Source: Dehalococcoidia bacterium | GTDB taxonomy: Bacteria > Chloroflexota > Dehalococcoidia > SM23-28-2 > RBG-16-64-32 | Assembly: GCA_034432935.1 (NCBI GenBank) | Contig: DAOUBD010000005.1 | Location: 1,054-65,053, forward strand | DNA length: 64,000 bases | Reading direction: 5' to 3' | Shown: one piece after another, positions 13,777 to 47,632 of the stretch | Numbering within the stretch: position 1 is the first letter of the stretch | Layout of the letters: every line of letters starts with the position of its first letter | Program-made: the position numbers and the translations under genes | Notes under the pieces: generated by a model | The model's input: the letters and a program-made list of their open reading frames with translations, nothing else | Told to the model about the DNA's origin: nothing | The model's database searches: none

Positions 13777-14091
13777 TCAGCCCTCCACTACGTGCTGGTC
13801 GTCCCGGTCCAGGGGTGGGATGGATAGGCTCATGACCAGCGCCTCGCCCTTGACGGCGCGCACGCTGTGCACCGTCCCCTGCTCGATGCGCACGGTCTCG
13901 TAAGGGCGAAGGCGCAGGGTGTGGTCGCCTACGGTGGCCTCCACCTCGTGCTCCAGCACTGTGTAGATCTGGGCGCACTTCTCATGGTAGTGGGGCGCCA
14001 CGTGCTCCGTCTCCAGCATACGTATGATGCGTATGCTGCACTCCGGCATGGAGACGTGAGAGAGGATCTCGTACATGCCCATGTCGCTCAT
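13777..14091 (-). CDS. cupin-domain protein
   Basis: A small (104 aa) double-stranded beta-helix protein with His-rich motifs (HVAPHYHEK, GTVHSV). Confidence 0.5.
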   Translation of the reverse strand: MSDMGMYEILSHVSMPECSIRIIRMLETEHVAPHYHEKCAQIYTVLEHEVEATVGDHTLRLRPYETVRIEQGTVHSVRAVKGEALVMSLSIPPLDRDDQHVVEG

Positions 14092-14696
14092 GATTTCACC
14101 TGCTCGAAGTAACTGGCCCTGGCTTTCTCATACTCCTCTGGCCGGTTCATGTCCAGTAGCACCAGGGCAGAGGGGAACTCTATTTCGGTAATCCGGCGCT
14201 CGTGCCGCTGGATAACGGCTCGCAGGCCCTGGGTCTCCTCCCGCACCTGCCGCAGCTCCGGCAGCAGCGAGCCGTCCACGATGAGGGGGTGGCCCCGCTC
14301 GCCCTGGTGCACTGGCAGCGTGATCAGGCTGCGCCGCCGAAAGTGCACCTCCACCAGGCGCTTGCTGACCGAAGCCGGCCGCGGTTGGTCCACGTTCAGG
14401 ATGACGATCGCCTGCGTGTTATCGGGCAGGGCGGCGGCGCCCACACGGACGGACGAGGCCCGGCCCTCGGCGTACAGTTCGTTCACGATGGCCTGGGCGC
14501 CGGCCCGGTGGACGTAGGGTAGCACCTCGTGCGCGCGGTGGCCCAGGACGACGACGATCGGCGACGCTGGAATCTCCGCCAGCTGGGCTAGCTGGTACTC
14601 GATCAAGGTCTGCCCGCCCCATTCCAGCAAGGGCTTGGGGGTTCCCATACGGGTTGACTCGCCGCCGGCCAGCAGGACGGCGGCCACTCCTGCCAC
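14088..14696 (-). CDS. molybdenum cofactor nucleotidyltransferase (MocA/MobA-like)
   Basis: N-terminal LLAGGESTRMGTPKPLL nucleotidyltransferase motif. It lies downstream of the xanthine-dehydrogenase-family operon. Confidence 0.65.
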   Translation of the reverse strand: MAGVAAVLLAGGESTRMGTPKPLLEWGGQTLIEYQLAQLAEIPASPIVVVLGHRAHEVLPYVHRAGAQAIVNELYAEGRASSVRVGAAALPDNTQAIVILNVDQPRPASVSKRLVEVHFRRRSLITLPVHQGERGHPLIVDGSLLPELRQVREETQGLRAVIQRHERRITEIEFPSALVLLDMNRPEEYEKARASYFEQVKS

Positions 14697-14705
14697 GGCC
14701 GCCCC

Positions 14706-15551
14706 TCACTCCACGGAGAACAGGGAGTCCAACTTCATGGCCAAGGCCACGTTGCCCGCCAGGTGCACCTTGCGCATGGTGATGGCGAACACGGGGTTCA
14801 GGTCGCCCGTCGAGAGGTCCATCCAGATCTCGGGCTTGGTTTTCAGCTCTAGGTCGAACTTCTCGGGTGCGCCGTCGGCAGAATCGGCGCGGCCATCGTG
14901 GGTATAGACGGTCCACTGACCGCCGCCGGGGCCCTCCATCGTGAACAGGTAGGTGGTGTTCTGGTCTGCGCCGCGGCTGCTCCAGTAGATCAGGGGCATG
15001 TAATGGAAGACGCGGTCCAGGTGGTAATGAACCTGCTCAGGGGTGCTTGCCTCTATCCAGTGGGGCAGCTTCTTCTTGGCGACTTTGCGGATCTGCTGGT
15101 ACTGCGATGGGAGGAACAGGTAGCTGGCGTGGAAGAGATCGCGGATGGTGCCCGCACGGTCCCAGCCGGGGCTGTTGGCCGGGCGGTCCAGGTCGGCTTC
15201 GCTGAGTCCTTCCAGCATCTGGAGGTGCTCCTCGAAGGCGGCCTTCATGCGCGCCAGGAGCTCGGACACGGGGAGGTCGCGCCGCCTGGCCACGCAGGCC
15301 TCGTGAAAGGCCGTTGCGTCCTCCCGCTTCTCGAAGCCGGGGATGCTGGCCGGCTCTCCGGCGATGGCCTGGCGGGTGAGCGGCAGCGCCTGGTCCTCCT
15401 GGGCGCCGACGGTGTTGGCCAGGTGCTCCTTGGCCGTCCACTTGTCCACCTTCTTCTTCCAGTCGGCATCGTCGAGGCGGCCGAAGCCGTCCAGGCAGCG
15501 CTTTAGGGCGCTACTGTAGAACTCTCTTATCTGCTCCTTGCTAGGCTTCAC
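14706..15551 (-). CDS. maleylpyruvate-isomerase-family (DinB_2-like N-domain) protein with SCP2-like C-terminal domain
   Basis: N-terminal WTAKEHLANTV-type motif and an SCP2-like C-terminus. Assigned by weak similarity. Confidence 0.45.
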   Translation of the reverse strand: MKPSKEQIREFYSSALKRCLDGFGRLDDADWKKKVDKWTAKEHLANTVGAQEDQALPLTRQAIAGEPASIPGFEKREDATAFHEACVARRRDLPVSELLARMKAAFEEHLQMLEGLSEADLDRPANSPGWDRAGTIRDLFHASYLFLPSQYQQIRKVAKKKLPHWIEASTPEQVHYHLDRVFHYMPLIYWSSRGADQNTTYLFTMEGPGGGQWTVYTHDGRADSADGAPEKFDLELKTKPEIWMDLSTGDLNPVFAITMRKVHLAGNVALAMKLDSLFSVE

Positions 15552-15580
15552 TGGCGGCTAAACCTCCGATCATAGGGTGA

Positions 15581-17896
15581 CTATATATTACCGAGAGCCC
15601 GCAATACGCGCTCCGGCGTCAGGGGGAGCTCATGGACGCGGGCGCCACAGGCATCGGCGACGGCGTTGGCTACGGCAGCGGGGGTGGCGACGATGGAGGG
15701 CTCGCCCACGATGCGCGCGCCGTAGGGCCCCTCCTCTGACGGCACCTCCACGATGATGGCTTCTATGGGTGGCACATCGGCTGGCGTCGGCAGACGATAG
15801 TCCAAGAGGTCGCCGTTGACCAGGCGGCCGCTGCCGTCGAAGAGGAGCTCTTCCCAGAGGGCGATGCCCAGGCCCTGGCTGGCGCCACCCTGGATCTGTC
15901 CCTCTACGGAGAGAGGGTTGATGGCGAATCCGGCGTCCTGGGCCACGGCCAGACCCAAGACCCTGACCTGGCCTGTCTCGGTGTCGACCTCCACCTCCGC
16001 GGCCTGCGCGGCGAAGCCCGGGGCCCACTTCCGCGTGGCCACCGCCGCCCGCCCGACGACGGCGGGGTAGGGTGCGCCGAAGTTGGTGCTCAGACGCCCC
16101 AGCTTCTGGAAGCTGACCGATCGCTGGGGGTCGCCCTTCACCCTGATCTCGCCATCCCTCATCTCTAGCTCGTCCTCCGCCGCCGACAGCCTGTCTCTGG
16201 CCAGGGCCAGGAGCTGGCGCTTGGCGTCCTCCGCGGCCTCCTTGACGGCCCGGCCGACGGTGTAGGTGGTCTTGCTGCCGGCGCTCATCCCAGCGTAGGG
16301 CGCCGTCTTCGTGTCGCCCGAGGTGACGGAGACCATGGACAGGGGGACGCCCAAGACCTCGGCCGCGATCTGGCGAAAGGAGGTGTTGGTGCCGGTGATG
16401 TCCGAGGAGCCCACCGTAATGTTGATGGTGCCGTCGCTGTTGAGGCAGACGATGGCGCTGGCCGGCTGGAGGCCGCCCATCCAGCCGCCGACGGCCAGGC
16501 CCACGCCGCGCCGCTTCGCTCCTTCCTCTTGCCGGGTGCTGGCGCGGCGGCGCCAGACGCTGCTCTGGGCGATGGCCTCCAAGCACTCCCGCAGGCCGAT
16601 GGCAGGGTAGGCCTGGCCTGTGGGAAGGGGATCGCCCGCCGCGACGGCGTTCTTGAGCCGTACCTCCAGGGGGTCCAGGCCCAGCTCTTTGGCCATCATA
16701 TCCATATGGCTTTCGATGGCAAAGGTGGCGTTGTGGGCTCCGGGTGCTCGCAGAGCCCCCACGCTCACCTTGTTGGTCAAGACCTCGTAGCCTTGGATCT
16801 CCAGGTTGGGGCAACGGTAGTAGCCACCGACGGCGATGCATCCCGGCAGCATGGGCGCGCCGGGAAACGCTCCGGAGTCGTAGATCAGGCGGGCCTTGAG
16901 GGCCACGAGGGTGCCGTCACGCTTCATCCCAGTCTTCAGCTCGACCCGGGCGAAGGGGGCTGGCGTGCCTGCCACCATGTCCTCGCGCCGCCCCATAACG
17001 TACTTCACGGGCCGCTGCACGGCCATGGCCAGGGCAGCGGTCATGAGCTCCGTCAGAAAGATCTTGCCGCCGAACCCCCCGCCGACCTCCGTGGCGGTGA
17101 CCCGGATGCGGTTCTCGGGAACCCCGAGTGTCTGGGCCAGCTCGTCCCGCACGTAGAAGGGGGCCTGCGTGCTAGTCCAGACCGAGAGCTCCCCGTTGGG
17201 GCTGTAGTCTGCCACCGTGGAGTGGGTCTCAATGTAGGCCTGGTGCACCATGCTGGACGTCCACACGCCCTCCACGACACAATCGGCCTCGGCGAAGCCG
17301 GCCTCGACATCTCCGCGGCGGAAGGACAGCTGCGACGCGATGTTGGTGGGCTTGCCCCCCTGCTCCTCTTCGGCCGCTTCCACCGTGACGTGGCCTCGCT
17401 CCTCAGAGCGGTCGATCTGGCTGAGGGGAGAACGCACCAAAGGCGCTCCTTCCTCCATGGCTGCTAGGGGGTCCAGCACGGCCGGCAGCGGCTCGTACTC
17501 CACTTGTATGAGGTCCAGCGCTTCCTCGGCCACGTGAGGATCCTCGGCCAGCACCGCCGCCACGGGTTGGCCGCAGAATAGCACCTCATCTTGAGCGAAG
17601 ATGATCCCTCGCCGGTTGGACGGGTTCACCTTACAGGGTGGGAGATCGCCCGCGGCCAGGACGGCGAACACACCAGGCTTGGCGCGGGCCCGCGAGAGGT
17701 CGATGGCCTTGATGCGAGCGTGGGCATAGGGGCTGCCCAGTACTTTAGCATGGAGCATCCCGGGCAGCTTCATGTCTCCCGCGTAGACCGTGCGCCCCGT
17801 GACCTTGCCCACGGCATCCTCCCGGGGCACCCGTTGGCCTATCGCCCGATGCCGGGCAGGCTGGTCCTGTTGCCGGCTCGCGGTAGCTTGCGCCAT
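15581..17896 (-). CDS. xanthine dehydrogenase family molybdopterin-binding large subunit (CoxL-like)
   Basis: 771 aa with GGGFGGK and aldehyde oxidase/xanthine dehydrogenase a/b hammerhead and MoCo-binding domains. Confidence 0.85.
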   Translation of the reverse strand: MAQATASRQQDQPARHRAIGQRVPREDAVGKVTGRTVYAGDMKLPGMLHAKVLGSPYAHARIKAIDLSRARAKPGVFAVLAAGDLPPCKVNPSNRRGIIFAQDEVLFCGQPVAAVLAEDPHVAEEALDLIQVEYEPLPAVLDPLAAMEEGAPLVRSPLSQIDRSEERGHVTVEAAEEEQGGKPTNIASQLSFRRGDVEAGFAEADCVVEGVWTSSMVHQAYIETHSTVADYSPNGELSVWTSTQAPFYVRDELAQTLGVPENRIRVTATEVGGGFGGKIFLTELMTAALAMAVQRPVKYVMGRREDMVAGTPAPFARVELKTGMKRDGTLVALKARLIYDSGAFPGAPMLPGCIAVGGYYRCPNLEIQGYEVLTNKVSVGALRAPGAHNATFAIESHMDMMAKELGLDPLEVRLKNAVAAGDPLPTGQAYPAIGLRECLEAIAQSSVWRRRASTRQEEGAKRRGVGLAVGGWMGGLQPASAIVCLNSDGTINITVGSSDITGTNTSFRQIAAEVLGVPLSMVSVTSGDTKTAPYAGMSAGSKTTYTVGRAVKEAAEDAKRQLLALARDRLSAAEDELEMRDGEIRVKGDPQRSVSFQKLGRLSTNFGAPYPAVVGRAAVATRKWAPGFAAQAAEVEVDTETGQVRVLGLAVAQDAGFAINPLSVEGQIQGGASQGLGIALWEELLFDGSGRLVNGDLLDYRLPTPADVPPIEAIIVEVPSEEGPYGARIVGEPSIVATPAAVANAVADACGARVHELPLTPERVLRALGNI

Positions 17897-17921
17897 AGCG
17901 GTCTCCTTCTAGGGCTGACGC

Positions 17922-18395
17922 CTAATCGAGCTTATTCCATGCCGCCTGGACTATGGCCTCGTAGATTTTGGCGTAGCCGGTGCAGCGGCACAGGTTGCCG
18001 GCTAGCGCCTCCCGAACGTCGTCCACCGATGGAGACGGCTTCTGCTGCAGAAGCCACCCCGCCATCACGATCATCCCCGGGGTGCAGAAGCCGCATTGCA
18101 CGGCGCCGGCATCGACGAAGGCCCGCTGCACGGGGTGGAGGGCGCCTCCAGCGGCCATGCCCTCGACGGTGGTGACGGAGCAGCCGTCAGCCTGGGGCGC
18201 CAGCACGAGGCACGAGGTGATAGGGCGCCCGTCCAGCAGCACTGTGCATGCTCCGCAGTCGCCCGTCCCGCAGCCCTCTTTCGGCCCGGTAAGGCCGAGG
18301 TGGTCCCGCAGGGTCTCCAGCAAGCTCCAGCGTGGTTCCACCAGCAGCTCGCGGGGCTGGCTGTTGAGGGTGATGCTGATAGGGTATCTGGCCAT
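17922..18395 (-). CDS. (2Fe-2S)-binding small subunit (CoxS-like)
   Basis: CGTGDCGACTV and CGFCTPG motifs, 157 aa. Confidence 0.85.
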   Translation of the reverse strand: MARYPISITLNSQPRELLVEPRWSLLETLRDHLGLTGPKEGCGTGDCGACTVLLDGRPITSCLVLAPQADGCSVTTVEGMAAGGALHPVQRAFVDAGAVQCGFCTPGMIVMAGWLLQQKPSPSVDDVREALAGNLCRCTGYAKIYEAIVQAAWNKLD

Positions 18396-18397
18396 TC

Positions 18398-19273
18398 CTA
18401 ACTCCTCGCTGAGGCCCTGGCCAACGACTCCCGCAGCAGGCGCTCCGTGAGCACCCGGACGAGGTGGCGGCGATAGGTGGCGGAACCGCGCTGGTCATCT
18501 ATGGGGGCGCACTCGCCGGCGGCCGTGGCGGCCGCCCGAGCGAAGGTCTCGTCCGAGGCCTTCTGGCCCTCCAGTGCCGCCTCGGCCCCATGGGCCCGCA
18601 TCGGCACCGGGCCCACGGCGCCGAGGGCCACCCGTGCGCGGGCGATGCGCGTGCCTTCTACCGTGAGGGCGATGGCGACGCCGGCCACGGCGATGTCCAT
18701 TCGGGCCCGCGGGGTCTGGCGCCGGTAGGCCGTGCCGGTGCCCGGCGGCAGCGGCGGAATGCGCAGCTCTAGCAGGATCTCGCCGTGCTGGAGGGCCGTG
18801 AGGCCGGGCCCTTTGAAGAACTCCTGTAAGGGCAGCCTCCGTGTACCCGTAGGGCCAGCGATTACGGCCTCGGCGTCCAACGCCAATAGGGGCGGCGCCG
18901 TGTCCGCTGAGGGGGCGGCGTTGCATAGGTTGCCGCCCACCGTCGCCATGTGCATCGTCTGTATCGAGCCGACCAGGGAGGCGCCCTCTGCCAGGGCTGC
19001 GTAGCCGCGGCTGACGCTCTCGGTATGGGCGATCTCCCACATGGGGGTAGTAGCACCGACACGGAGGCCGCCATCAACCTCGATGCCCCGGAGATCGGGG
19101 ATACGGTGCAGGCTCACCAGACGCGAGGGGATGGGAAACCGGGTGGAACCCTCCTTCATCTGTGGCACCAGATCCGTGCCGCCCGCCAGCGGCCGCGCCG
19201 CTGACGCTGGGTCCGAGAGGAGTTCGATGGCCTCCTTCAGGGAGCCCGGGGCGAAGTATTCGAAGTTGCGCAC
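18398..19273 (-). CDS. FAD-binding medium subunit (CoxM-like)
   Basis: FAD-binding PCMH-type domain (LAGGTDL..) and a CO-dehydrogenase flavoprotein C-terminal domain. Gene order is M-S-L. Confidence 0.8.
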   Translation of the reverse strand: MRNFEYFAPGSLKEAIELLSDPASAARPLAGGTDLVPQMKEGSTRFPIPSRLVSLHRIPDLRGIEVDGGLRVGATTPMWEIAHTESVSRGYAALAEGASLVGSIQTMHMATVGGNLCNAAPSADTAPPLLALDAEAVIAGPTGTRRLPLQEFFKGPGLTALQHGEILLELRIPPLPPGTGTAYRRQTPRARMDIAVAGVAIALTVEGTRIARARVALGAVGPVPMRAHGAEAALEGQKASDETFARAAATAAGECAPIDDQRGSATYRRHLVRVLTERLLRESLARASARS

Positions 19274-22949: not shown

Positions 22950-23648
22950 ATGGACCTTATCTGGGATGGCGTCAAGGAGGCCGTCCGCCTCGTCTTTACC
23001 GGCAACGGTTACGTTTACGAGGTGACCTTCACGTCGCTCCTCGTCTCGGGAGCGGCCACGGGCATCGCCGTGGTGGTGGGCCTGGGGCTAGCGTCGCTCC
23101 TCGCCTTCTCGTCGCCGCCGGGGCGCACGGCAGCGATAGGGGTGCTGAATACAGGCATGGCCCTGCCCCCGGTGGTCGTGGGCCTCTTCGTCGCGGTGAT
23201 GTTATGGCGGACGGGGCCCTTCGGACAGCTGCACCTCCTGTACACCCGCTGGGCCATCATCATCGCCCAGGCCATCATCGCCACGCCTGTGGTCACGGCC
23301 CTGGCCGTCGCCGCCCTTCAGAGCCTGCACCCGCGCCTGCGGTTGCAAGTCCTCGCCCTGGGGGCGTCCCGCTGGCAGGCGGCCTGGCTTCTGTTTAGAG
23401 AGGCGCGCCAGTCTCTCATGGCCGCCGTTATCGCCGGCTTCGGGGCCGCCATCTCAGAGGTAGGGGCCACCATCATGGTAGGCGGCAACATAAAGGGGGA
23501 GACTCGCACCCTGACATCGGCTGCCGTCCTGGAGGTGTCGCAGGGGCATCTGGAGACGGCGATGGCGCTATCGTTCATCCTCCTGGCGGTCATCTTTCTC
23601 GTGATCCTCTCCTTCACCCTGGTGCAGCAACGGAGGCCCCGTCCTTGA
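22950..23648 (+). CDS. ABC transporter permease, molybdate/tungstate (ModB/TupB-like)
   Basis: ~6-TM permease of 232 aa, assigned by similarity to tungstate/molybdate permeases. Overlaps the downstream ATPase. Confidence 0.6.
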   Translation: MDLIWDGVKEAVRLVFTGNGYVYEVTFTSLLVSGAATGIAVVVGLGLASLLAFSSPPGRTAAIGVLNTGMALPPVVVGLFVAVMLWRTGPFGQLHLLYTRWAIIIAQAIIATPVVTALAVAALQSLHPRLRLQVLALGASRWQAAWLLFREARQSLMAAVIAGFGAAISEVGATIMVGGNIKGETRTLTSAAVLEVSQGHLETAMALSFILLAVIFLVILSFTLVQQRRPRP

Positions 23649-24751
23649 TGGCGCCTCGTTTGGGTCTGAGGGGCGTGCGGGTGTCCTGGAGCGGGCGCAG
23701 CATCCTCGAGGTGGATTCCCTGGACGTCTTTCCAGGCGAGGTTTTGGCTGTGGTGGGTCCCAACGGGGCCGGCAAGAGCACCCTCTTGCAAGTCATGGCA
23801 CTGCTGCAACGCCCAGGCCAAGGGCAGGTGCTGTTCGATGGCCAGCCGGCCAGGCCGGGTTCGCTGGGGCTCCGCCGGCGGATGGCGATGGTTTTCCAGG
23901 AGCCTTTGTTGCTGGGGGGAACAGTCGGATACAACGTCTGCTGCGGGCTGGCGATGCGGGGGGTGCCGCGGGGTGAGCAGGAGCGGCGGGCGGCGCTCTG
24001 GCTGGAGCGCTTCGGTGTGGCCCACCTGGCCGGCCGGTCTGTGCGGTCGCTCTCCGGTGGCGAGGCGCAGCGGGTAAGCCTGGCCCGGGCCCTGGCGCTG
24101 GAGCCGGAGGTGTTGCTCCTGGACGAGCCCTTCGCGGCCCTGGACGCGCCCACCCGCGGTCTCCTGATGGACGACCTGGACCAGGTGCTGGCGGAGCGCG
24201 GGACGACCACCGTGTTCGTGACCCACGACCGCAACGAGGCGCTGCGCCTGGGGGACAGGGTGGCGGTGCTCATGGGCGGCCGCGTCAGGCAGTGCGGGAC
24301 GCCCTCGGACGTTTTCGCCGCCCCGGCGGACGCCGAGGTGGCGGCTTTCGTGGGTGTCGAGACCATCGTCTCGGGGCAGGTGCGGGAGGTCAGCCAGGGG
24401 CTGGCGCTGGTGGACGTCTGCGGCAGAACAGTGGAGGCGCCGGCAGCCAGCGGGCCCGGGTCCGGCGTCCTGGTCTGCTTGCGGCCTGAGGATGTGGTGT
24501 TGGAAGCGCCGGCGGAGGGCGTAGCTCACAGCAGCGCCCGCAACCGCTTGCCGGCGGTGGTGCGCCGGGCCCTGCCCGCCGGACCCCTCGTCCGGGTGGA
24601 GCTGGACGCGGGTTTTCCGCTGGTGGCCCTGGTCACGAGACAATCAGCTGGCGAGCTGGCCTTGGCCCCTGGCGCGTCTGTGGTGGCATCCTTCAAGGCG
24701 ACGGCGGTGCACCTCATACCGCGGCGCCGGGAAGGCGCCCGCGGTGGCTAA
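23645..24751 (+). CDS. ABC transporter ATP-binding protein with C-terminal TOBE domain (ModC-like)
   Basis: Walker A GPNGAGKST, LSGGEAQR signature and a C-terminal TOBE-like domain. Confidence 0.75.
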   Translation: MMAPRLGLRGVRVSWSGRSILEVDSLDVFPGEVLAVVGPNGAGKSTLLQVMALLQRPGQGQVLFDGQPARPGSLGLRRRMAMVFQEPLLLGGTVGYNVCCGLAMRGVPRGEQERRAALWLERFGVAHLAGRSVRSLSGGEAQRVSLARALALEPEVLLLDEPFAALDAPTRGLLMDDLDQVLAERGTTTVFVTHDRNEALRLGDRVAVLMGGRVRQCGTPSDVFAAPADAEVAAFVGVETIVSGQVREVSQGLALVDVCGRTVEAPAASGPGSGVLVCLRPEDVVLEAPAEGVAHSSARNRLPAVVRRALPAGPLVRVELDAGFPLVALVTRQSAGELALAPGASVVASFKATAVHLIPRRREGARGG

Positions 24752-26098: not shown

Positions 26099-26623
26099 TC
26101 AGGGCGGCGTTGGCGCAGACCGGATGCGGGTGCCCTGCTTCTTGAGGATGCGGGTGCTGAACAGGACATCGTGGGGAAGGCCTTCCAGGCCGGCCTCGCG
26201 GTTGATCTCCTGGACCTTGTGCAGCACCTCCTCCTGGGACATGCCGTGGACCATGGCGAACAAGTTGTAGGGCCAGCCAGGCCGGCGTGGCCGCCGGTAA
26301 CAGTGGGTGATCTCCGTCCGTTGCCCCAACCTCGCTCCAACCTCTGATACCCGCTCGTCGGGCACGTCCCACACGGCCATGCCGTTATACCTGACGCCCA
26401 GGGCATAGTGGTTGGGCACCGCCGCCAGGCGCTTGATGATGCGGCGATCCAGGAGAGAGCGCAGCATCGCCAGGACCTCCCCCTCGCCAGTACCCAGTTG
26501 TTCAGCGATCTCCTTCCAGGGCTCGGGGACCAGGGGTATCCCCTCCTGGACGATAAGGAGGAGCTGTCGCTCCAACGGGCTGATGGCAGCCTCCGTACCC
26601 ACGCCTTCCCCCTGTTCCGTCAT
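26099..26623 (-). CDS. Lrp/AsnC-like siroheme decarboxylase subunit (AhbB/NirDLGH-like)
   Basis: Lrp/AsnC-like N-terminal HTH plus a C-terminal domain with ITHCYRRP...YNLFAMVH. It is tandem with, and overlaps, its paralog. Confidence 0.5.
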   Translation of the reverse strand: MTEQGEGVGTEAAISPLERQLLLIVQEGIPLVPEPWKEIAEQLGTGEGEVLAMLRSLLDRRIIKRLAAVPNHYALGVRYNGMAVWDVPDERVSEVGARLGQRTEITHCYRRPRRPGWPYNLFAMVHGMSQEEVLHKVQEINREAGLEGLPHDVLFSTRILKKQGTRIRSAPTPP

Positions 26624-27130
26624 CCCTGGTGTCCCGTAGCGCCGTTCTCGTCAGCGTCCGGCAGCTCGTAGTAGAACTCGACGCGGTATTCCTCCAGGGT
26701 CGGGAGGTTGAGGACCTCGAGGCCAGTCTCCCTCTCGATCTCGCTGATGACGCGCTGCACCGCCTGTGGGTCTTCCGAGGATACGACGAACCACAGGTTG
26801 TAGTGGTGGGTGCGCTCGTAGTTGTGAGAGATCTCCGGGTGGCGGTTGATGGCGGCGATGACCTCGTCCAGCCGTTCGGGGGGTGCGGCCACGGCGGCCA
26901 GGGTGCGCTCTCCCCCCAACTGGGGCGCGTTGAGGATGGCGCCCAGGCGTGTCAGGCCCCCTTCGTCCAGCAGGCGGCGCAGGCGGCGTATCACATCTTC
27001 CTCGGTCGTCCCGACGGCGCGGGCGGCCTCCAGATACGGGCGCGGCGTGAGGGGTATGCCCCTCTGGAGCAGGTTTATGAGGCGCCGGTCGCTGCTATCC
27101 AGATACACCGCGTCATCGATCCTCTGGCGC
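26620..27130 (-). CDS. Lrp/AsnC-like siroheme decarboxylase subunit (AhbA/NirDLGH-like)
   Basis: Contains ISHNYERTHHYNLWFVV. The longest ORF (to 27219) overlaps the acyl-CoA dehydrogenase stop, so the true start is probably internal with a non-ATG codon. Confidence 0.5.
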
Positions 27131-27136
27131 GTGTTG

Positions 27137-28911
27137 TCATACCGAGGCGGGCAGGGCCTCTGGCGGCAGCGGCTGATAGCGGGTGATGGGGGCGAAGAGG
27201 TCCAGCACGGAACGGTCATCGCTGATGGCCCGCATGGGGCCGCTGCGGGCTGCCAGGAGCCGGTCCCGAATGAAGAAGCGGGCGACGGCGGCCTTGCGGG
27301 CTGAGCCTGTCTTCCGCATCTCCTCCTGGGCGGCTTCCAAGAGGAGCGACGCCTGCGTGAGGTCCGAGAGGAAGGATGTCACGCGCCGGGCGTGGAGCTG
27401 CCGCAGGTCGGCGTCTGCTCTAGCCAGGAAGAGGATCATCTCTTGGGCATCGCGCCGGGCCTGGAGCACAGCGTCCTTGAGTTGGGCCAGCGCCGGGTGC
27501 TCGACGCCTGCGAGCGCCCGGTCTACGCGGTCCAGGAGGGCGTCGTGGGCGTTCTCCTTGGCCATGGAGCGCAGGACGTCCAGGCAGATGATGTTCTCGG
27601 TGCCCTCCCAGATGGTGTGGCATTGGGCGTCCCGCAGTTGGCGGGCCGTGGGCCAGGTCTCGACGTAGCCGTTGCCGCCGAGGATTTCCACGGCCTGGCT
27701 GGCCAGCTCCAGGCCGCCGCGGGCGCCCCGGAACTTGGCCAGGGGCACCAGGATGCGGTAGAGGCGGCGGCCCTTTTCGTCTCCGGTGGCCCCGGCTAGG
27801 GAGGCGGCCTCGAAGACCATGGCGGAGGCGCCCTCCAAGGCCACCACCATCTGAACCAGCGTCTCCTGAACCATCGGCAGCTCATCCAGGCGCCGGCCGA
27901 AGGCCGTGCGGTGGGCCGCGTAGATGGCGGCTTCCAGGAAGGAGCGCCGCATGATGCCCAGCCCCATGGTGGCCACCCCCAGGCGCGACCCGTTCACCAT
28001 GCTCATCATGCGGTTGAGGCCCCGTGCCTCGGAGCCGGCGTCGCGGTTAGGGTTGCTCAGGATGTAGGCCTCTGCATCGATGAAATCGACCTCGGCCGTG
28101 GGCACCGAGCGCGTCCCCAGCTTGTCCTTCAGCCGCTTGATGCGGATGCCGTTGCGGGTGCCGTCGGCGCGCTCCGCGGGCACCAGGAAGAGGGCCAGGC
28201 CCCGCACTCCCGCCTCGGCCCCCTCGGGGCGCGCCAGGGTGGCGATGGCCTTGGCGTCAACGTTGGAGCAGAACCACTTGGACCCGTTGAGCAACCAGCG
28301 GTCGCCGTCCCGGCGGGCCACCGTCTCGCTGGTGCCGAGATCAGAACCGCCGCGGATCTCCGTCATGAACATGGCTCCATCCCAGGAGCCGTCGAAGGTG
28401 GGCGATTGGAGGTGTGGCAGCACCCTCTCCTTGATCTCCGGCGAGCCCCAGCGCGAGACCAGGAGCTCGACGCCGCTAGTCATCCCCGTAGCGCACACCA
28501 TGCCGGTGTCGCATTGACTGAGAAGGTAAGTGAAGGCCGAGCCTAGTACTGTGGGGATGGGCTTGCCCCGGCGCGCCGATAGCCCCTGGGGCCCTTCGTT
28601 CCATATGTCGCGCTTGCTCTCGATGGCGTCAGGGTGGTGAACGATGGTGCAGACCTCGTTGCCCCAGGCGTCGTAGCGCTCCAGGCGCGGCGGGTTGCGG
28701 TCGATCACCTCCGCCCGGCGCGCCAGGGGCCCGCCACAGAGTTCGCCCCAGCGCACCAGCGTCTCCTCGGCCCACTCTCTGTCTTCGGCCCCGATGTACC
28801 GGTCCGCTATGTCCCGCAGGTTGGGGTCGATGAGGTACCAGTTGAGTCCTATGGCGGACTCAAAGCTGCTATAGTCGATGCCCTCGCCGTTGCTCCTAAG
28901 CCTATCCATTG
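27137..28911 (-). CDS. acyl-CoA dehydrogenase family protein (AidB-like, long N-terminal domain)
   Basis: ACAD middle and C-terminal domains (GTSETV..., GGNGYVETWP). The start is taken at MDRLRSNG. Confidence 0.7.
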
Positions 28912-29003: not shown

Positions 29004-30089
29004 CTACTCCGCTCCAAGAAGCTCCACGTCGAAAATGAGCGTAGCGTTCGGAGGGATCGCCGGAGGGCTGCCAGAGGCCCCGTACGCCAGCTCCGGCGGT
29101 ATGATAAGCCGCCGCTTGCCGCCCACCTTCATGGAGGCGACGCCCTCGTCCCAGCCGGCGATCACCTGGCCCCGGCTCAAGAGGAACGAGAGCGGGCTGG
29201 CCCTGTCGATGGAAGAATCGAATTTGGTCTGGCTGCCGGCGAGCCAACCGGTATACTCCACCGTCACCTTCTGTCCTGGCTGCGGGGCGGGCCCCGTGCC
29301 CTCCTGGATATCGATGTACTGGAGGCCGCTAGGGGTGGTAACGGGCGTGCCGCTCACGGGCGGGGGCGACTCTGGCGCTGGCTCACGCACGTCCACCAAC
29401 TGCACATCCATCACCAGTGTGGCGTTGGGGGGGATGGCCGGCGGCGAGCCCTGCTCACCATACCCCAGGCTGGGTGGTATGAGGAGCTTGCGCCGGCCGC
29501 CGACCCTCATAGTGGCCACACCCTCCTCCCAGCCTTTGATGACCTGGCCGCTGCCCAATCGGAAGCCGAAGGGGCGCCCCCGGGCGACGGTGCTGTCGAA
29601 GACATCGCCCCCTTTGACCTTGCCCACGTAATGCACGACCACCACCTGGCCCTCCTGGGGGGCTGGGCCATCGCCCGTCACGACGTCCACGTACTTCAGG
29701 CCGCTGGGAGTCGTGACGGCCCCGGAGAACTCGTCGCTGCCCCGCAGGGCGGCTGCCAGGACCAGGGCGCCGCCTACCGCCGATGCTAGTCCGCCGGCCA
29801 TCAGGAGCCACGGCAGCCAGGATGGGATGCGGGCCCAGCGGGCCGCCCGCCTCTCCCGCGCCTGCGCCAGGGCCAGGGCCCGCGCCTGGTCGTACGCTGC
29901 CCTCCGGCGCGGGTCGTCGAGCGTATCGAAGGCCTCGTTGATCTCGCGCATCATCGCCGGGTCCCTCGGCGCCTTGTCAGGGTCCGGCTGGTATCGCCGG
30001 GCTAGGCGCTCGTAGGCCTGGGCGATCTGCTCACGGGTGGCCTGGGGTCCAACCCCCAGGACGGCGTAGTAGTCCTTGTGGCTCGTCAC
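29004..30089 (-). CDS. membrane protein: N-terminal J-domain, one TM helix, two FKBP-type PPIase domains
   Basis: J-domain DYYAVLGV...[12 protein letters not shown], a TM helix [25 protein letters not shown], and two FKBP12-like domains ([21 protein letters not shown]...; [21 protein letters not shown]...IFDVELL). Confidence 0.75.
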
Positions 30090-30976
30090 GGCGATGGGCT
30101 GGCTGGAGGCTGCGAGGGAGCACTGGCCGTTGGTACCGGTGTGGCCTTCCTGAAGATATCGACTAATTCGACGTCAAAGATCAACGTGGCGTTGGGCGGT
30201 ATCTTGGGCGGCGAGCCGGTAACCCCGTAGCCTAGCTCGGGCGGGATGATGAGGCGGCGCTTGCCACCCTTCTGCATCGTCGCTAGGCCCTCGTCCCAGC
30301 CCTTGATTACGCTTCCGGTTCCCAGGACGAAGCTGAAGGGGGCGGCGCGCTCCACCGAGCTATCGAACTTCGTGCCGTCGGACTGGAGCCAACCCGTGTA
30401 GTTGACCACGACGGTGTCGCCCGGCGATGGCGGGTCGCCCGTGCCGGGCTGGATATCGATGTACTGGAGGCCAGAGGGGGTGGTGACGGCTTCGCCCGTG
30501 ACCTCTGGCGGGTTGGCCGGCGCCACTCCCGGCGTCTGGGCCGGCAGCGTCGGCGTGGGGCTGGCCGGGGCGACGCTGGCGCTGACCGTGGGCTGGCTGA
30601 CGGCGTTCTGGCCGCCGCCACCGCCGGTGAGGGATGCCACTATGACGGCGATGATGATGAGGACGGCTATGCCGAGGCCGATGCCGCCCAAGAACTCGGG
30701 CCGCGCTAGGAAGTCGGAGAACGCCGACTCCTGCGCCTCGACGGCGGCGCCCGGTTTGCGGCGGGAGCGGCGCCGGTCGTACTCTGCCCGGCGTTTCGGG
30801 TCCTTGAGGACGGCGTAGGCTGCCTGAAGCTCCTCCCAGCGCTGCCGCGCCTTGGGTTTGCGGCTCGTGGCGGGATCGTAAAGGCGCGCCAGCCGCTCGT
30901 ACGCCCGCTCGATCTCCGCCTGGCTGGCCGAGCGGCTCACTTGCAGCACGGAGTAATAGTCTCGCTGTTTCTCCAC
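30086..30976 (-). CDS. membrane protein: N-terminal J-domain, one TM helix, Pro/Thr/Ala-rich linker, one FKBP-type PPIase domain
   Basis: J-domain DYYSVLQV...[13 protein letters not shown] helix [20 protein letters not shown], and an FKBP domain [19 protein letters not shown]...GWDEGLATM...[12 protein letters not shown]. Its start overlaps the upstream paralog's stop. Confidence 0.75.
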
Positions 30977-33182: not shown

Positions 33183-34196
33183 GTGGCGGGTTACATCGTC
33201 TTCACGAGGCTGACGCCGGCCGGCCAGAAATCCCTTCGCAACAACCCCAACCGTCTGGCCGAGGTGGCGGCCCAGGTGCGCAGCCTGGGGGTCAAGATCA
33301 CTAGGCAGTACGCCACCCTGGGAGACTACGACTTCATCACCTTCATAGAGGCGCCGGACAACGTGACGGTGGCCAAGGCGGCGGCCGAGATCAGCGCGCT
33401 GGGTACTATGCGCCTGGAGGTCTTCCCCGTCCTGTCCATGGACAGATTCGCCCACCTGCTGCGCCTTCAGCCCTATCGAACGGAGCCCCACCGCTGGCAG
33501 ACGGCCCTTTGGGCGCGGGCCATTCGCCGCGTGTTCCGCTACGTGGCCGCCACCCAGTACGTGCGCCGCTTCTGCCGTCCGCTGACCGTAGAGGGGCGGG
33601 AGAACCTGGAGGGCCTGAAGGGCCCCGCCGTCATCATCGCCAATCACAGCTCGCATCTGGACACTCCCGTGGTGCTCAGCGCGCTGCCAGGACGTATCAG
33701 CAGCCGTCTGGCCATCGCTGCGGCGGCCGATAAGTTCTACGCCTCGCGCCGCAAGTTGGCGTGGCGCTACTCCCTCTTCCTCAACACCTTCCCGGTGCAC
33801 CGCGGCGGCGGGGTCAAGCAGTTGGAGTACCCGCTGTCGCTCTTGGAGCGGGGCTGGTCCATCCTTATCTTTCCTGAGGGTGGCCGGTCCAAGACGGGGC
33901 AGATCGGCCGCTTCAAGGCGGGGCCGGCCATCATGGCCATGGAGGCTGGGGTGCCGGTGGTCCCCATCTACATGGAAGGTTTGCGGGAGATCCTCCCCAA
34001 GGGCTCGCGGCAGCCGCGGCCGGGGCCGGCGGTGGCCCGGATAGGCAGGCCCGTCTCCCTTGCTGGAGCGGCCTCCGTGGCCGAGGCCACGGTCTTGCTG
34101 GAGAACGCCATGCGCTCCCTGGCGGGCTTGCCCCCACGGCAGGCGGCGTCCCCGGCGGCCCAGCCGGGCGGCCTGGGGCAACCTACGGCTGGCTGA
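33183..34196 (+). CDS. fusion protein: N-terminal GYD domain + lysophospholipid (1-acyl-sn-glycerol-3-phosphate) acyltransferase PlsC-like domain
   Basis: Residues 1-95 are paralogous to the upstream GYD protein (LGDYDFITFIEAPDNVT). The C-terminal part has the acyltransferase HX4D motif NHSSHLDTPV and FPEGGRS. Confidence 0.7.
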   Translation: MAGYIVFTRLTPAGQKSLRNNPNRLAEVAAQVRSLGVKITRQYATLGDYDFITFIEAPDNVTVAKAAAEISALGTMRLEVFPVLSMDRFAHLLRLQPYRTEPHRWQTALWARAIRRVFRYVAATQYVRRFCRPLTVEGRENLEGLKGPAVIIANHSSHLDTPVVLSALPGRISSRLAIAAAADKFYASRRKLAWRYSLFLNTFPVHRGGGVKQLEYPLSLLERGWSILIFPEGGRSKTGQIGRFKAGPAIMAMEAGVPVVPIYMEGLREILPKGSRQPRPGPAVARIGRPVSLAGAASVAEATVLLENAMRSLAGLPPRQAASPAAQPGGLGQPTAG

Positions 34197-44825: not shown

Positions 44826-45755
44826 CTATAGGGGCTCTACCTCCAAGCTCAGGTCCAGCGCCTTAGCCGAGTGGGTGACGGCCCCCATCGAAATGTAGTC
44901 CACGCCCGTCTCCGCTACCGTCCGGGCGTTGGCGAGGGTGATCCCCCCCGATGCCTCGAGGGCGGGCCGGTGCTCCAGCCGCCCCATGAGGACTACCACC
45001 TCTCGCATCTGGGAGGGCGTCATGTTGTCCAAGAGAAGTTCGTTCGCGCCGGCCTTGGCCGCCCGCTGGGCCTCCTCCACCGTGGTGACCTCTACCTCGA
45101 TCCGCATGTTGGGTTGGGCCCGGCGCAACAGTCGCACGGCGTCCTCGATGTACAACCCACGGGCCCGCAGGGCAGCCAGGTGGTTGTCCTTCACTAGTAT
45201 GCCGTCGGCCAGGCTCATCCGGTGGTTAAGGCCGCCGCCCATGCGCACAGCGTACTTCTGGAGGGAGCGCAGCCCAGGGATCGTCTTGCGGGTATCTCGG
45301 AGACGGCACTTGGTGCCCCTCAGTTCGCGCACGACAGCCGCCGTGGCGGTGGCGATGCCGCTGAGGTGGCAGAGGAAGTTGAGGGCCACTCGCTCAGCTC
45401 GCAAGATGGAGGCTAAGCACCCCTCCACCATAGCGACGTGCTGGCCCTCGGTCACAACCTGGCCGTCCTCCACCGGTGCTGACCAGCGGAGCCTGGGGTC
45501 GGCGGCTGCAAAGGTGGCCCGGGCTAAGGGCAGTCCGGCGATGACGCCGGGCGCCTTGGCTACGATGACCCCGCGGCCCTCTTGGTCCTCGGGCACCAGG
45601 GCATCGGAGGTGATATCCTGCCAGGCGCGGTCCTCCATGAGGGCGCTTTCCGCCAGCCGGCGCAGGTGGGTCTCATCGAGCAACACCTCCCTGTCCTGGC
45701 TGACGGTGTGGATAAGGGAGCGGTCGATGCTGCGCCGCTCTCCCTGGCGTTCCAT
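44826..45755 (-). CDS. nadC: nicotinate-nucleotide diphosphorylase (carboxylating)
   Basis: Quinolinate phosphoribosyltransferase (QAPRTase) fold. The start is taken at MERQGERR. Confidence 0.85.
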   Translation of the reverse strand: MERQGERRSIDRSLIHTVSQDREVLLDETHLRRLAESALMEDRAWQDITSDALVPEDQEGRGVIVAKAPGVIAGLPLARATFAAADPRLRWSAPVEDGQVVTEGQHVAMVEGCLASILRAERVALNFLCHLSGIATATAAVVRELRGTKCRLRDTRKTIPGLRSLQKYAVRMGGGLNHRMSLADGILVKDNHLAALRARGLYIEDAVRLLRRAQPNMRIEVEVTTVEEAQRAAKAGANELLLDNMTPSQMREVVVLMGRLEHRPALEASGGITLANARTVAETGVDYISMGAVTHSAKALDLSLEVEPL

Positions 45756-46072
45756 GGTGGGGCCCTCCTCTTGGGATTGTCCGGCCAAAGGGCGAAGGGG
45801 TCAAGGGGATCGGCGGCGCTAGGGGTTTCGTCCAGCCCGCCCGCCATGATAACCCGGGAGAAAGAAAAGCTTCCCGGGGATTAGGCGGGCGCTTGGGGAG
45901 TTCTAGGTCTCGACTGGGCGTCTGGTCGCCCATCCGCTCCCTCGAGTCCCTTCCTCCGTCGCGCCTGCCCGGTCGGGAAGCTGAGGCCATTGTCGGCCGG
46001 CGTACTGAAGGGGGTCAACCGCTTTTTCCACACCCTCCACAAATCCACAGGAGAACCGTAGCCCCGGGGTGT

Positions 46073-47632
46073 TTAGAGACGGCGCCGGAAGACGATGTGC
46101 CGGTGCCATTCCTCTCGCGGCTCCGGAAAGTCGCTGCGATAGTGGGCGCCGCGCGATTCCCGCCGCATGAGCGCGGCCTCCGCGACCAGCCGGGCGCATG
46201 TCAGGAGGTCGGCCACTTCCTGCGAGGGTCGGTCTCTTGGCTCGGGGAGGACGGCTTGCCAGGCTGCCAGCGTGGCCTTGGCCCGGGAGAGGGACGCTGC
46301 GTCCCGCACGATCCCTACGTCGCGCCACATCAGCTCTTGTATATCCTCGCGGCCCGGCGGGCCCGCCACCTGGCTGGCCATCTCTCCTGCCGCCTCCAAG
46401 GGATCGCTCAGGTCGGTGGCGTCCTGGGTCTCCGGGGTCTTGCCGCCGGGCGCCTCTTGCGTGCGCCGCACCACGCGTTTGGCAAAGACCACCGTCTCCA
46501 GAAGGGAGTTGGAAGCGAGCCGGTTGGCGCCGTGCACGCCGGTGCAGGCGCACTCACCGCAGGCATAGAGCCCTCGAACGGTGGTCTCGCCCCAGGTGTT
46601 GGTCCGGATGCCGCCCATGGTGTAGTGGGCGGCGGGCGACACCGGAATCGGCTGGCGGGTGATGTCCAGGCCCGCGTCCTTGCAGAAGCGGTAGATCTGG
46701 GGGAAGCGGGCCATCACCAGGTTGGGGTCCAAGTGGGTGACATCTAGGAGCACGTAGTCGGCGCCCGTTTTGCGCATGCGGTCCAGGATGGCCCTGGCCA
46801 CAATGTCCCTGGGGGCCAGCTCTGCCTTGGGGTGGTAGGAGGGCATGAATCGTTCGCCGTTGATGTCGCGCAAGATCCCGCCTTCCCCCCGCACCGCCTC
46901 CGAGATGAGGAAGGGTTGCACGCCGGGCAGGCGCAGGGCGGTGGGGTGGAACTGGAAGAACTCCATATCCATCACCTCCGCCCCAGCGCGGTAGGCCAGA
47001 GCGATGCCGTCGCCGGTGGCCACCTGTGGGTTGGTGGAGACTCGGTATAGCTGGCCGGCCCCGCCTGTGGCCAGGACCAGGTGGCGGCAGGTGTAGGCCC
47101 GCCGTTCGCCGGTCCGGGTGTCCAGGGCCCGGATGCCAACAGCGTCATCGCCCTCGCCCCGCAGGAGCTCCGTTGCGATGGTGTACTCCAGGACCGTGAT
47201 CCCCTCCTGGCGGGCGACGGAGGAGAGGGTGAGCTCGATGTACTGGCCAGTGGAATCGCCGCCGGCATGGAGGACTCGCGGCAGCGAGTGGGCGCCCTCG
47301 CGGGCCAGGGCGATCTCCCCGTGAACGGTGTCGAAGGGCACGCCGAAGTGGACGAGATCGCGTATACGGTCGGCGGCCTCGTTGACCAGGACGCGGGCCG
47401 CCTCCAGGTCTACCAGGCCCGCGCCGGCCTCCACCGTATCGCGCAGGTGGATCTCCGGCGAATCGCCGGGGCCGATGGGCGCAGCTATACCCCCCTGCGC
47501 CCAGCGCGTGTTGCAGTCGTCGATACTCCCCTTAGTCAGCACCAGGACGGAGCCGTGCTCCCGCGCCAGCAAGGCGGCGTAGAGGCCGGCGATGCCTGAG
47601 CCGACGATGATGTAATCGTAATCGGGGTACAC
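46073..47632 (-). CDS. nadB: L-aspartate oxidase
   Basis: FAD motif DYIIVGSGIAGL and HYTMGG. Confidence 0.9.
   Translation of the reverse strand: MYPDYDYIIVGSGIAGLYAALLAREHGSVLVLTKGSIDDCNTRWAQGGIAAPIGPGDSPEIHLRDTVEAGAGLVDLEAARVLVNEAADRIRDLVHFGVPFDTVHGEIALAREGAHSLPRVLHAGGDSTGQYIELTLSSVARQEGITVLEYTIATELLRGEGDDAVGIRALDTRTGERRAYTCRHLVLATGGAGQLYRVSTNPQVATGDGIALAYRAGAEVMDMEFFQFHPTALRLPGVQPFLISEAVRGEGGILRDINGERFMPSYHPKAELAPRDIVARAILDRMRKTGADYVLLDVTHLDPNLVMARFPQIYRFCKDAGLDITRQPIPVSPAAHYTMGGIRTNTWGETTVRGLYACGECACTGVHGANRLASNSLLETVVFAKRVVRRTQEAPGGKTPETQDATDLSDPLEAAGEMASQVAGPPGREDIQELMWRDVGIVRDAASLSRAKATLAAWQAVLPEPRDRPSQEVADLLTCARLVAEAALMRRESRGAHYRSDFPEPREEWHRHIVFRRRL

Follow-up and report, generated by a model that had tools for sequence, protein, structure and literature searches.

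Two small overlapping genes on the minus strand of the window, the whole 64-kb stretch of DNA from an uncultured Dehalococcoidia bacterium analysed here, resemble those of transcription factors but almost certainly specify both subunits of a siroheme decarboxylase of the AhbA/AhbB (NirDL/GH) type, an established enzyme of alternative heme synthesis. The identification relies on family HMMs, matches to solved structures, a conserved motif, the predicted fold and the complementarity of an A-type with a B-type subunit, and bears out the likeness to AhbA/AhbB (NirDL/GH) noted in a preliminary description of this DNA. Considered as a whole, the locus can with good probability be read as encoding a heterodimeric siroheme decarboxylase, most likely feeding a siroheme-dependent route to heme b. 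An ordinary member of a known family, slightly rearranged, is indicated, with neither a new mechanism nor a new family. The finding suggests that a group of Dehalococcoidia with an apparently aerobic lifestyle uses a siroheme-dependent heme route.

The gene pair and its surroundings

The gene for the beta-type subunit (ahbB-type, NirH/NirL-like; 174 aa), delineated from the ORF list and by profile matches, occupies positions 26099–26623 of the minus strand. Upstream of it, at 26620–27108 on the same strand, lies the gene for the alpha-type subunit (ahbA-type, NirD/NirG-like), which encodes 162 aa from a probable GTG start. The two are, as first described, arranged head-to-tail with an overlap of four bases (26620–26623, minus strand); there, the TGA stop codon of the upstream gene runs into the ATG start codon of the downstream gene in the sequence ATGA. 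Translation of the two genes is coupled by this overlap, and AhbA and AhbB should accordingly be produced in roughly equal amounts. Overlap or near-abutment of the two genes is repeated in relatives (L001–L006 and L009).

Protein sizes of about 170–200 aa had been proposed. The lower value holds for the AhbB-type protein, with its 174 aa, but the upper one derives from the longest ahbA-type ORF in the ORF list (26620–27219, 199 aa), which is over-extended. Public gene calls give the AhbA-type protein 162 aa, the 37-residue N-terminal extension of the 199-aa version is broken by in-frame stops in five relatives (L007, L010, L006, L175 and L173), and this version would overrun the 3′ end of the neighbouring AidB-like gene by 83 nt. 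On these grounds, translation most likely starts at the GTG at 27108 and not at 27219. The neighbour, a public gene call at 27137–28909 of the minus strand, encodes an AidB-like acyl-CoA dehydrogenase of 590 aa with the Pfam domains AidB_N, Acyl-CoA_dh_M and Acyl-CoA_dh_1. Its stop codon (27137–27139) is separated from the GTG start of ahbA by a gap of 28 nt, in which a promoter/terminator scan detected no terminator; past the end of ahbB, that scan gave its sole match, a promoter-like site of weak score. A DinB_2 protein (Pfam) is encoded downstream of the pair, so that both flanks agree with the preliminary description. An Rfam scan of the 64-kb window returned no riboswitch or other RNA. 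Values of dN/dS between 0.12 and 0.21 for both genes, a range that includes comparisons inside the clade without an adjacent radical-SAM (rSAM) gene, indicate that both are under purifying selection.

Family membership, motif and fold

Both siroheme-decarboxylase-specific Pfam domains exceed their cutoff in each subunit. The C-terminal AsnC_trans_reg2 domain (PF17805) is matched with E-values of 1e-28 and 6e-19 by the two proteins, and the N-terminal NirDL-like HTH domain (PF22451) with 7e-19 and 6e-17; in bits, PF22451 and PF17805 score 67.6 and 99.5 in one protein and 61.3 and 68.4 in the other, the gathering cutoff being 27. The AsnC-type HTH N-terminus reported earlier is recovered in both proteins as PF22451 and, in the AhbA-type protein, also as PF13404 (36 bits). 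An HMM comparison, proposed as a check in the preliminary description, placed decarboxylase models best and regulator models far under their cutoffs. On the NCBIfam model for AhbB (NF040707), the AhbB-type protein clears the cutoff of 125 with 174.6 bits. The top model of the AhbA-type protein is that for AhbA (NF040708), with 118.3 bits, under the cutoff of 140; this equivalog cutoff is a naming threshold and no biochemical criterion. The scores are reciprocal, the A model exceeding the B model for the AhbA-type protein and the converse holding for the AhbB-type protein. Together with their adjacency and ATGA overlap, the genes therefore present one alpha-type and one beta-type subunit.

Comparison with solved structures leads to the same family. 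The AhbB-type protein matches the C-terminal half of NirDL (4ch7) with an E-value of 2e-37 and AhbB (4czd_B) with 2e-24, and the AhbA-type protein matches AhbA (4czd_A) with 1.7e-31. Between them, the two proteins match both halves of NirDL, and the resemblance lies well beyond chance. An AF2 model of the AhbB-type subunit (mean pLDDT 79.8) finds chains D and B of 4czd as its best Foldseek matches, and the top six matches in the PDB are 4czd chains, 4ch7 and 4czc (E-values from 9e-12 to 7e-9), ahead of any regulator. TM-scores against the solved decarboxylases are only about 0.5, because domain orientation differs. For the AhbB-type subunit, the model thus predicts an Lrp/AsnC-like two-domain fold nearest to that of the solved decarboxylases. 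In each subunit, a winged helix-turn-helix at the N-terminus is followed by a RAM-like beta-sheet domain at the C-terminus.

The conserved His/Tyr-rich stretch of the preliminary description is present in both proteins, as EITHCYRR...PYNLF in the AhbB-type and EISHNYER...HYNLW in the AhbA-type. Each contains an HXYXR motif, aligned at 26291–26305 of the minus strand in the AhbB-type gene (His107-Cys-Tyr109-Arg-Arg111) and at 26812–26826 of the same strand in the AhbA-type gene (His95-Asn-Tyr97-Glu-Arg99 in the 162-aa numbering). Residues H107, C108, Y109 and R111 of the AhbB-type protein are invariant in an alignment of 24 homologues, and SHNYER is kept in all aligned Chloroflexota AhbA-type proteins as well as in NirD/NirG. 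The HCYRR of the AhbB-type protein corresponds to His98/Tyr100/Arg102 of Desulfovibrio desulfuricans AhbB, where the motif faces the inter-subunit cavity and holds catalytic residues, and where the R102A variant is inactive (PMC4145669).

Among characterized systems, AhbA–AhbB of D. desulfuricans and D. vulgaris (4CZD, 4UN1) likewise consist of two separate subunits of about 160–180 aa with an Lrp/AsnC-like fold and HXYXR in both, but share only about 30–35% identity with the pair; Desulfovibrio is a sulfate reducer, whereas the host of the window is an aerobic-looking Dehalococcoidia MAG without ahbC or ahbD nearby. In Methanosarcina barkeri, AhbAB (Mbar_A1459/A1460) are also encoded by separate adjacent genes, and their products form a heterodimer (PMC3942049). 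The NirD/NirL/NirG/NirH proteins of denitrifiers (e.g. Hydrogenobacter thermophilus NirDL, 4CH7) share reaction and domains with the AhbA/AhbB family, but come as four genes or fusions, whereas the window holds two paralogues without nirJ, nirS, nirF or nirN. The motif histidine, replaced by leucine in NirL, is kept in the B-type protein of the window, as in NirH.

Gene order in relatives and the absent partners

The absence of an ahbC, ahbD or nirJ radical-SAM gene from the window, already stated in the preliminary description, was confirmed in three ways. Pfam and NCBIfam searches of every plausible ORF in the 64 kb detected no radical-SAM, ahbC, ahbD, chdC, nirJ, siroheme-synthesis or other tetrapyrrole gene; a six-frame scan of the window for CxxxCxxC gave three instances of the motif, none within a radical-SAM ORF; and tblastn of the window with a TIGR04053 rSAM and NirJ gave a best E-value of 0.45. 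Nor was ahbC seen in any Chloroflexota neighbourhood of the pair that was examined.

Sister lineages offer a simple explanation for this isolation. In three of them (L005, L006 and L175), a TIGR04053-family rSAM gene lies directly upstream of ahbA–ahbB. In L005 and L006, its product passes the TIGR04053 cutoff of 395 with 457–465 bits, and the model ranked second is AhbD (353–382 bits). P0130, in another MAG, is one case of this rSAM–ahbA–ahbB order, and the contig of P0124, likewise in another MAG, stops just after the rSAM; on L176, the pair is not visible because the contig ends 183 nt past the rSAM. This is also the order of M. barkeri, where ahbD (A1458), ahbA (A1459) and ahbB (A1460) stand together and ahbC (A1793) is unlinked (PMC3942049). 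Unlike M. barkeri, the window has no ahbD-like gene at the locus, and the rSAM of the relatives belongs to TIGR04053 and not to the AhbD equivalog.

A synteny comparison of L006 with L001, L007, L009 and L010 shows what stands in the place of the rSAM. The outer flanks are common to the window and L006: an AAA_33 kinase lies on the upstream side, and the downstream side carries DinB, GDPD and a TOBE-type ABC transporter. The rSAM position is filled in the clade of the window by two DnaJ-FKBP genes and the AidB-like acyl-CoA dehydrogenase. Linkage of the latter with the pair occurs in L007, L009 and L010, and putatively also at P0009/P0262, P0029/P0261 and P0030/P0267. A further apparent match, P0003/P0154 (3574 nt), was set aside as a probable coincidence, since its two members stem from different sources. 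Across Chloroflexota, AidB-like genes are far commoner than their linkage with the pair; among the best 120 matches, no AidB orthologue fell on contigs of L006-type genomes, a result which, the contig assignment being indirect, speaks neither for nor against the AidB-like gene as a functional substitute for the rSAM. Since sister Dehalococcoidia keep an AhbD-like rSAM directly upstream, gene order indicates that the isolation of the pair is a local rearrangement and not the sign of a new role: the sister lineages have an ahbD-like rSAM–ahbA–ahbB arrangement as in Methanosarcina, and in this clade it has been rearranged.

One candidate partner was considered and rejected. A TIGR04053 homologue (P0135) stems from the same sequencing run as the AhbB of the window (SRR11582147), but its contig (L090) belongs to GCA_964582925.1. 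The tetranucleotide correlation of this contig with the window is r=0.82, against 0.96–0.99 for the true relatives L005, L006 and L009, and it is therefore not taken as evidence for a partner in this genome. The rSAM of L090/L091, the only one of TIGR04053 found in that run, probably comes from another organism.

Proposed function and competing explanations

With the Desulfovibrio AhbA/B structure as a guide, the C-terminal domains of both subunits would form one cleft, lined by the HXYXR motif of each. There, the arginine would grip an acetate carboxylate and His/Tyr would act as acid/base, CO2 being lost stepwise from the C12 and C18 acetate chains of siroheme to give 12,18-didecarboxysiroheme. 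Siroheme decarboxylase activity has been shown in published work by co-expression with CysG and HPLC-MS (PMC3942049), and siroheme-pathway enzymes are reported in Chloroflexota (PMC10991733). Didecarboxysiroheme would most likely be converted to heme b by an AhbC-type deacetylase and then by an AhbD-like radical-SAM enzyme or a ChdC-type coproheme decarboxylase, all presumably encoded elsewhere in the genome. The preliminary description had left the choice between Ahb genes located elsewhere and a different, possibly regulatory role. The former appears to fit better, given the AhbD-like rSAM of the sister lineages and the scattered ahb genes of M. barkeri and of Haloferax volcanii, in which all four are dispersed; a purely regulatory role is without support.

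That the two proteins are Lrp/AsnC-type transcription regulators, by origin or conversion, and do not decarboxylate siroheme is extremely unlikely. Lrp/AsnC (feast/famine) regulators do share the two-domain fold of HTH and RAM-like domains, and provide the usual automatic annotation; both proteins keep the N-terminal HTH, with PF13404 passed by the AhbA-type one, their homologues are publicly annotated mostly as ‘Lrp/AsnC family transcriptional regulator’, DNA or heme binding by AhbAB has been the subject of speculation (PMC4145669, PMC3942049), and the window holds no pathway partner. However, such regulators are without HXYXR and only 13–21% identical to the pair, whereas both subunits have kept the catalytic motif, which does not vary among their homologues. 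Regulator models stay far under their cutoffs (LysM 31 versus 180 bits, LrpA 21 versus 250; LysM, LrpA and ChrS spanning 19–31 versus 180–250), and the canonical RAM domain (PF01037) reaches 21.2 bits in the AhbA-type protein, below its cutoff of 25, and is absent from the AhbB-type. In the PDB, solved regulators are matched with E-values of 1e-4 to 1e-8, compared with 1e-24 to 1e-37 for decarboxylases, and the pairing of an A-type with a B-type subunit under translational coupling is a decarboxylase signature. A secondary regulatory role may exist alongside the enzyme. It is also very unlikely that the pair is a two-gene counterpart of NirDLGH and contributes to heme d1, destined for a cd1 nitrite reductase, and not to heme b. 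Outside Chloroflexota, the AhbB-type protein is most similar to NirH (50–59% identity), which denitrifying Proteobacteria encode as the fourth gene of their nirD-L-G-H-J clusters; the AhbA-type protein is nearest to NirG and NirD (up to 50% identity), and the H. thermophilus NirDL structure outscores Desulfovibrio AhbB with the AhbB-type query. This similarity cannot separate heme b from heme d1, because decarboxylation is identical in both pathways. Proteobacterial loci, by contrast, have four decarboxylase paralogues plus nirJ, and a heme d1 system is characterized by four such genes, or fused versions of them, in linkage with nirJ, nirF, nirN and nirS; tblastn finds two paralogues only in the window, none of the other nir genes was found there or noticed in the Chloroflexota neighbourhoods examined, and the pair-linked rSAM of the relatives passes TIGR04053, with AhbD next-best, while reaching only 163–167 bits on the NirJ model (cutoff 515).

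A working decarboxylase could also stand in a non-canonical context, on a route without canonical AhbC and/or with another enzyme replacing the AhbD-like rSAM, or with another fate of didecarboxysiroheme in Dehalococcoidia that look aerobic. No ahbC-like second rSAM accompanies the pair in any Chloroflexota locus examined, the partner rSAM of the relatives lies in TIGR04053 and outside the AhbD equivalog proper, and an AidB-like flavoprotein takes the rSAM position in several lineages, on the same strand, 28 nt upstream and with no terminator-like site between. Gaps in the heme pathway are moreover frequent in Chloroflexota, and the existence of unknown pathways has been proposed (Kim et al. 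preprint). On the other hand, M. barkeri and H. volcanii show that a separate location of ahbC is nothing unusual, AhbD-type enzymes also occur where the AHB pathway is not complete (PMC13564367), and AidB-like genes are so widespread beyond the linkage that their synteny with the pair may reflect descent alone; such a context is accordingly considered unlikely. A more specific version, which is decidedly unlikely, proposes that the clade lost the linked AhbD-like rSAM, gained a stable AidB-like linkage and finishes heme by a possibly oxygen-tolerant non-canonical route, which would either manage without AhbC at one step or replace AhbD by an enzyme other than an rSAM. If true, it could explain part of the seeming gaps in heme synthesis described in Chloroflexota.

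The siroheme decarboxylase assignment has consequences for annotation. The ‘Lrp/AsnC family transcriptional regulator’ label carried by homologues in public MAGs hides a tetrapyrrole enzyme, and mislabelled ahbAB can make heme-pathway reconstructions in Chloroflexota look less complete than they are. A literature search on TIGR04053 and on siroheme decarboxylase in Dehalococcoidia found nothing. An AhbB-type protein identical to that of the window is present in GCA_964428025.1 and in three Logan assemblies. In species-representative genomes, the closest match (69%) is on a 4-kb contig of a Dehalococcoidia MAG, and a metagenome scan returned mostly short contigs with matches of 47–57% identity, a range typical of proteobacterial nir clusters.

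The decarboxylase pair and its boundaries

As the preliminary description had claimed, two ORFs overlapping head to tail lie on the minus strand of the window, with an AidB-like acyl-CoA dehydrogenase gene upstream and a DinB_2 gene downstream (Pfam). The ahbB-type gene (26099..26623, 174 aa) shares four bases, ATGA, with the ahbA-type gene before it. The extent first given, 26099-27219, is right at its ahbB end, but ahbA does not start at 27219. The longest version of the upstream ORF in the ORF listing (26620..27219, 199 aa) is over-extended. Public gene calls on identical DNA give 162 aa, the TGA of the AidB-like gene (corrected to 27137..28909, minus strand, 590 aa; longest ORF, 626 aa) occupies 27139-27137 with a GTG following 28 nt later at 27108, and in five homologous contigs (L007, L010, L006, L175 and L173) the conserved LDxxD(R/K) N-terminus is preceded at a distance of 2-29 codons by in-frame stops, which rule out conservation of the 37-residue N-terminal extension. 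Therefore, the ahbA-type gene most likely spans 26620..27108, with a GTG start. A promoter and terminator scan found no terminator-like site between the AidB-like gene and ahbA, and a weak promoter-like site just past ahbB, upstream of the DinB gene.

Homology predicts that this pair encodes a genuine siroheme decarboxylase of the AhbA/AhbB type in a Dehalococcoidia MAG. Both proteins carry PF22451 (NirDL-like HTH) and PF17805 (AsnC_trans_reg2), two Pfam domains built on siroheme decarboxylases. Among NCBIfam models, the AhbB-type protein scores best with the AhbB equivalog (174.6 bits, cutoff 125; 63.9 bits with AhbA) and the AhbA-type protein with the AhbA equivalog (118.3 bits, cutoff 140; 77 bits with AhbB). 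The top PDB match of the former is the C-terminal half of H. thermophilus NirDL (4ch7, 2e-37 for the whole chain), with D. desulfuricans AhbB (4czd_B) at 2e-24; the latter best matches AhbA (4czd_A, 1.7e-31), and the N-terminal half of NirDL is the stretch scoring best against it. Collectively, the reciprocal model scores and chain matches indicate that one protein is an A-type and the other a B-type subunit. Among PDB entries, true Lrp/AsnC regulators match both proteins only at 1e-4 to 1e-8, and regulator equivalog models reach 19-31 bits against cutoffs of 180-250, far too low to compete with the AhbA/AhbB resemblance initially proposed, which the HMM comparison upholds.

In the AhbA/B structure, a conserved HXYXR motif lines the inter-subunit cavity; His98, Tyr100 and Arg102 of AhbB are proposed to be catalytic, and R102A is inactive (PMC4145669). 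The motifs quoted in the preliminary description are present in both proteins, HXYXR being HCYRR in the AhbB-type protein (residues 107-111) and HNYER in the AhbA-type protein (residues 95-99). H107, C108, Y109 and R111 of the AhbB-type protein are invariant across 24 homologues, down to 55% identity. For the B-type subunit as modelled with AlphaFold (mean pLDDT 79.8), the top six PDB matches are 4czd chains, 4ch7 and 4czc, with regulators ranking below. Nei-Gojobori dN/dS ratios, in comparisons that took in L009 and L007, whose gene order is that of the window, are 0.12-0.19 for the A-type and 0.15-0.21 for the B-type gene; thus, selection maintains both. The pair belongs to an already known kind of siroheme decarboxylase, and is of use chiefly in correcting the frequent annotation 'Lrp/AsnC regulator'.

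A radical-SAM neighbour in relatives

All plausible ORFs of the 64 kb, each covered by a Pfam or NCBIfam scan or a precomputed Pfam call, yielded no radical-SAM gene and none for siroheme or other tetrapyrroles. None of the three CxxxCxxC instances in six frames lies inside a radical-SAM ORF, and tblastn of the window with a TIGR04053 radical-SAM protein and proteobacterial NirJ gave a best E of 0.45; therefore no radical-SAM pseudogene remnant is present. The reported absence of ahbC, ahbD and nirJ from the window thus holds. Only two decarboxylase paralogues were detected by tblastn, and an Rfam scan of the window returned no family at threshold.

In the Dehalococcoidia contigs L005 (8247-9476), L006 (8246-9538) and L175 (53-1405), ahbA-ahbB is immediately preceded, on its own strand, by a gene for a radical SAM/SPASM protein of the TIGR04053 family (409-450 aa), and five further lineages are likely, judging from contig-length matches, to share this linkage. 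Contig L176 carries such a gene at 1374-2690 and stops 183 nt past it, leaving the downstream genes unseen. The L005 and L006 proteins score 457-465 bits on the TIGR04053 model (cutoff 395), 353-382 on AhbD (cutoff 500), 224-249 on NirJ2 (cutoff 500), 173-174 on AhbC (cutoff 650) and 163-167 on NirJ (cutoff 515), by which they are AhbD-like, neither AhbC nor NirJ. A literature search on TIGR04053 found nothing.

L006 and the window have common outer flanks, an AAA_33 kinase gene upstream on the opposite strand and DinB, GDPD and TOBE-type ABC transporter genes downstream. The place of the L006 radical-SAM gene is taken, in the window, L007, L009 and L010 (AhbB identity 69-85%), by two DnaJ-FKBP genes together with the AidB-like gene. 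A lineage-specific rearrangement has parted the window's pair from its usual AhbD-like neighbour. In the more distant L173 (57%), the pair has neither neighbour. Within one clade the AidB-like gene and the pair are tightly linked, but genes of this kind are far commoner in Chloroflexota than the linkage is; a functional connection is possible, and unsupported. The DnaJ-FKBP genes (29004-30089 and 30086-30976, both minus strand) overlap by 4 bp and each encode an N-terminal J-domain, a Pro/Ala-rich, apparently membrane-spanning linker and FKBP-type peptidyl-prolyl isomerase domain(s); this tandem upstream of the AidB-like gene is kept in L007 and L009.

Heme b or heme d1

Outside Chloroflexota, the B-type protein is closest to NirH proteins (50-59% identity) from nirD-L-G-H-J clusters of denitrifying Proteobacteria, and the A-type protein is similar to NirG and NirD. 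This similarity cannot discriminate between heme b and heme d1, because the decarboxylation is identical in both pathways. Proteobacterial nir clusters have four decarboxylase paralogues, whereas Chloroflexota loci have two, and no nirJ, nirS, nirF or nirN was noticed in the Chloroflexota loci examined. Together with the AhbD-like linked radical-SAM protein, this favours a role of the Chloroflexota pairs in the heme b route, as judged from gene content. In NirL of nirDLGH clusters, Leu replaces the motif His (S/T-L-C-Y-R/Q-R; L012:9001-9504, L067:9058-9513, L026:6348-6797); NirD, NirG and NirH keep it, as does the window's B-type subunit, which is in this respect like NirH and unlike NirL.

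The order ahbD-like, ahbA, ahbB in the relatives is that of Methanosarcina barkeri (Mbar_A1458, A1459 and A1460), where ahbC is distant (A1793; PMC3942049), and in Haloferax volcanii all four ahb genes are scattered (PMC8305020). With these precedents, a pair without pathway neighbours is unremarkable. No AhbC-like second radical-SAM gene occurs in any Chloroflexota neighbourhood examined, as expected from M. barkeri. Reviews also point to AhbD-type enzymes in Gram-positive bacteria that otherwise lack the AHB pathway (PMC13564367), and to a mix of PPD, CPD and siroheme-route enzymes in Chloroflexota (PMC10991733). The ahbAB identification informs reconstruction of their heme pathways. TIGR04053 genes adjoining a GAF-domain gene, without ahbAB linkage, are found in L090 (10001-11296; GCA_964582925.1) and L091. 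L090 and the window share a sequencing run; L090 was dropped as a source of the window genome's own radical-SAM gene, being a contig of a different Dehalococcoidia MAG with a tetranucleotide profile unlike that of the window (r=0.82).

Host lineage and other genes of the window

An exact copy of the AhbB-type protein is encoded in MAG GCA_964428025.1, on a contig of 50.7 kb, and others occur in the Logan assemblies for SRR11582145, SRR11582147 and SRR11582148. Named relatives are Dehalococcoidia MAGs, and GC content is ∼67% throughout the window. Genes for Ni-superoxide dismutase, the SUF system, a CoxLMS/xanthine-dehydrogenase-type molybdoenzyme and a Nuo subunit suggest an oxygen-exposed lifestyle. 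The Ni-superoxide dismutase gene and an S26-family signal-peptidase-like gene adjoin (1765-2265, minus strand; 2332-2775, plus strand); the product of the latter may be the maturation protease, and the locus hints at oxygen exposure in this lineage.

The molybdoenzyme locus (14088-19273, minus strand) encodes a 771-aa large subunit, Fer2 and FAD subunits, a MobA-like nucleotidyltransferase and a DinB_2-SCP2 fusion protein. At 22950-24751 (plus strand) lie the permease and TOBE-domain ATPase of a molybdate/tungstate-like ABC transporter, without the two periplasmic binding-protein genes and LysR-type regulator gene that adjoin it in relatives (L006:12255-16370, L007:13172-17394, L174:3479-8929); in their place, an MFS/MarR pair directly neighbours the permease, and L009 is arranged alike. 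A 337-aa protein with GYD and acyltransferase domains is encoded at 33183-34196 (plus strand), beside a separate 99-aa GYD gene called in the public assembly, and the two are kept together in L002 and L009. Finally, de novo NAD synthesis is represented by a complete nadC-nadB-nadA cluster at 44826-48974 (minus strand). The Pfam alignment of the 424-aa NadA ORF begins only at residue 81, and its start is therefore probably over-called.
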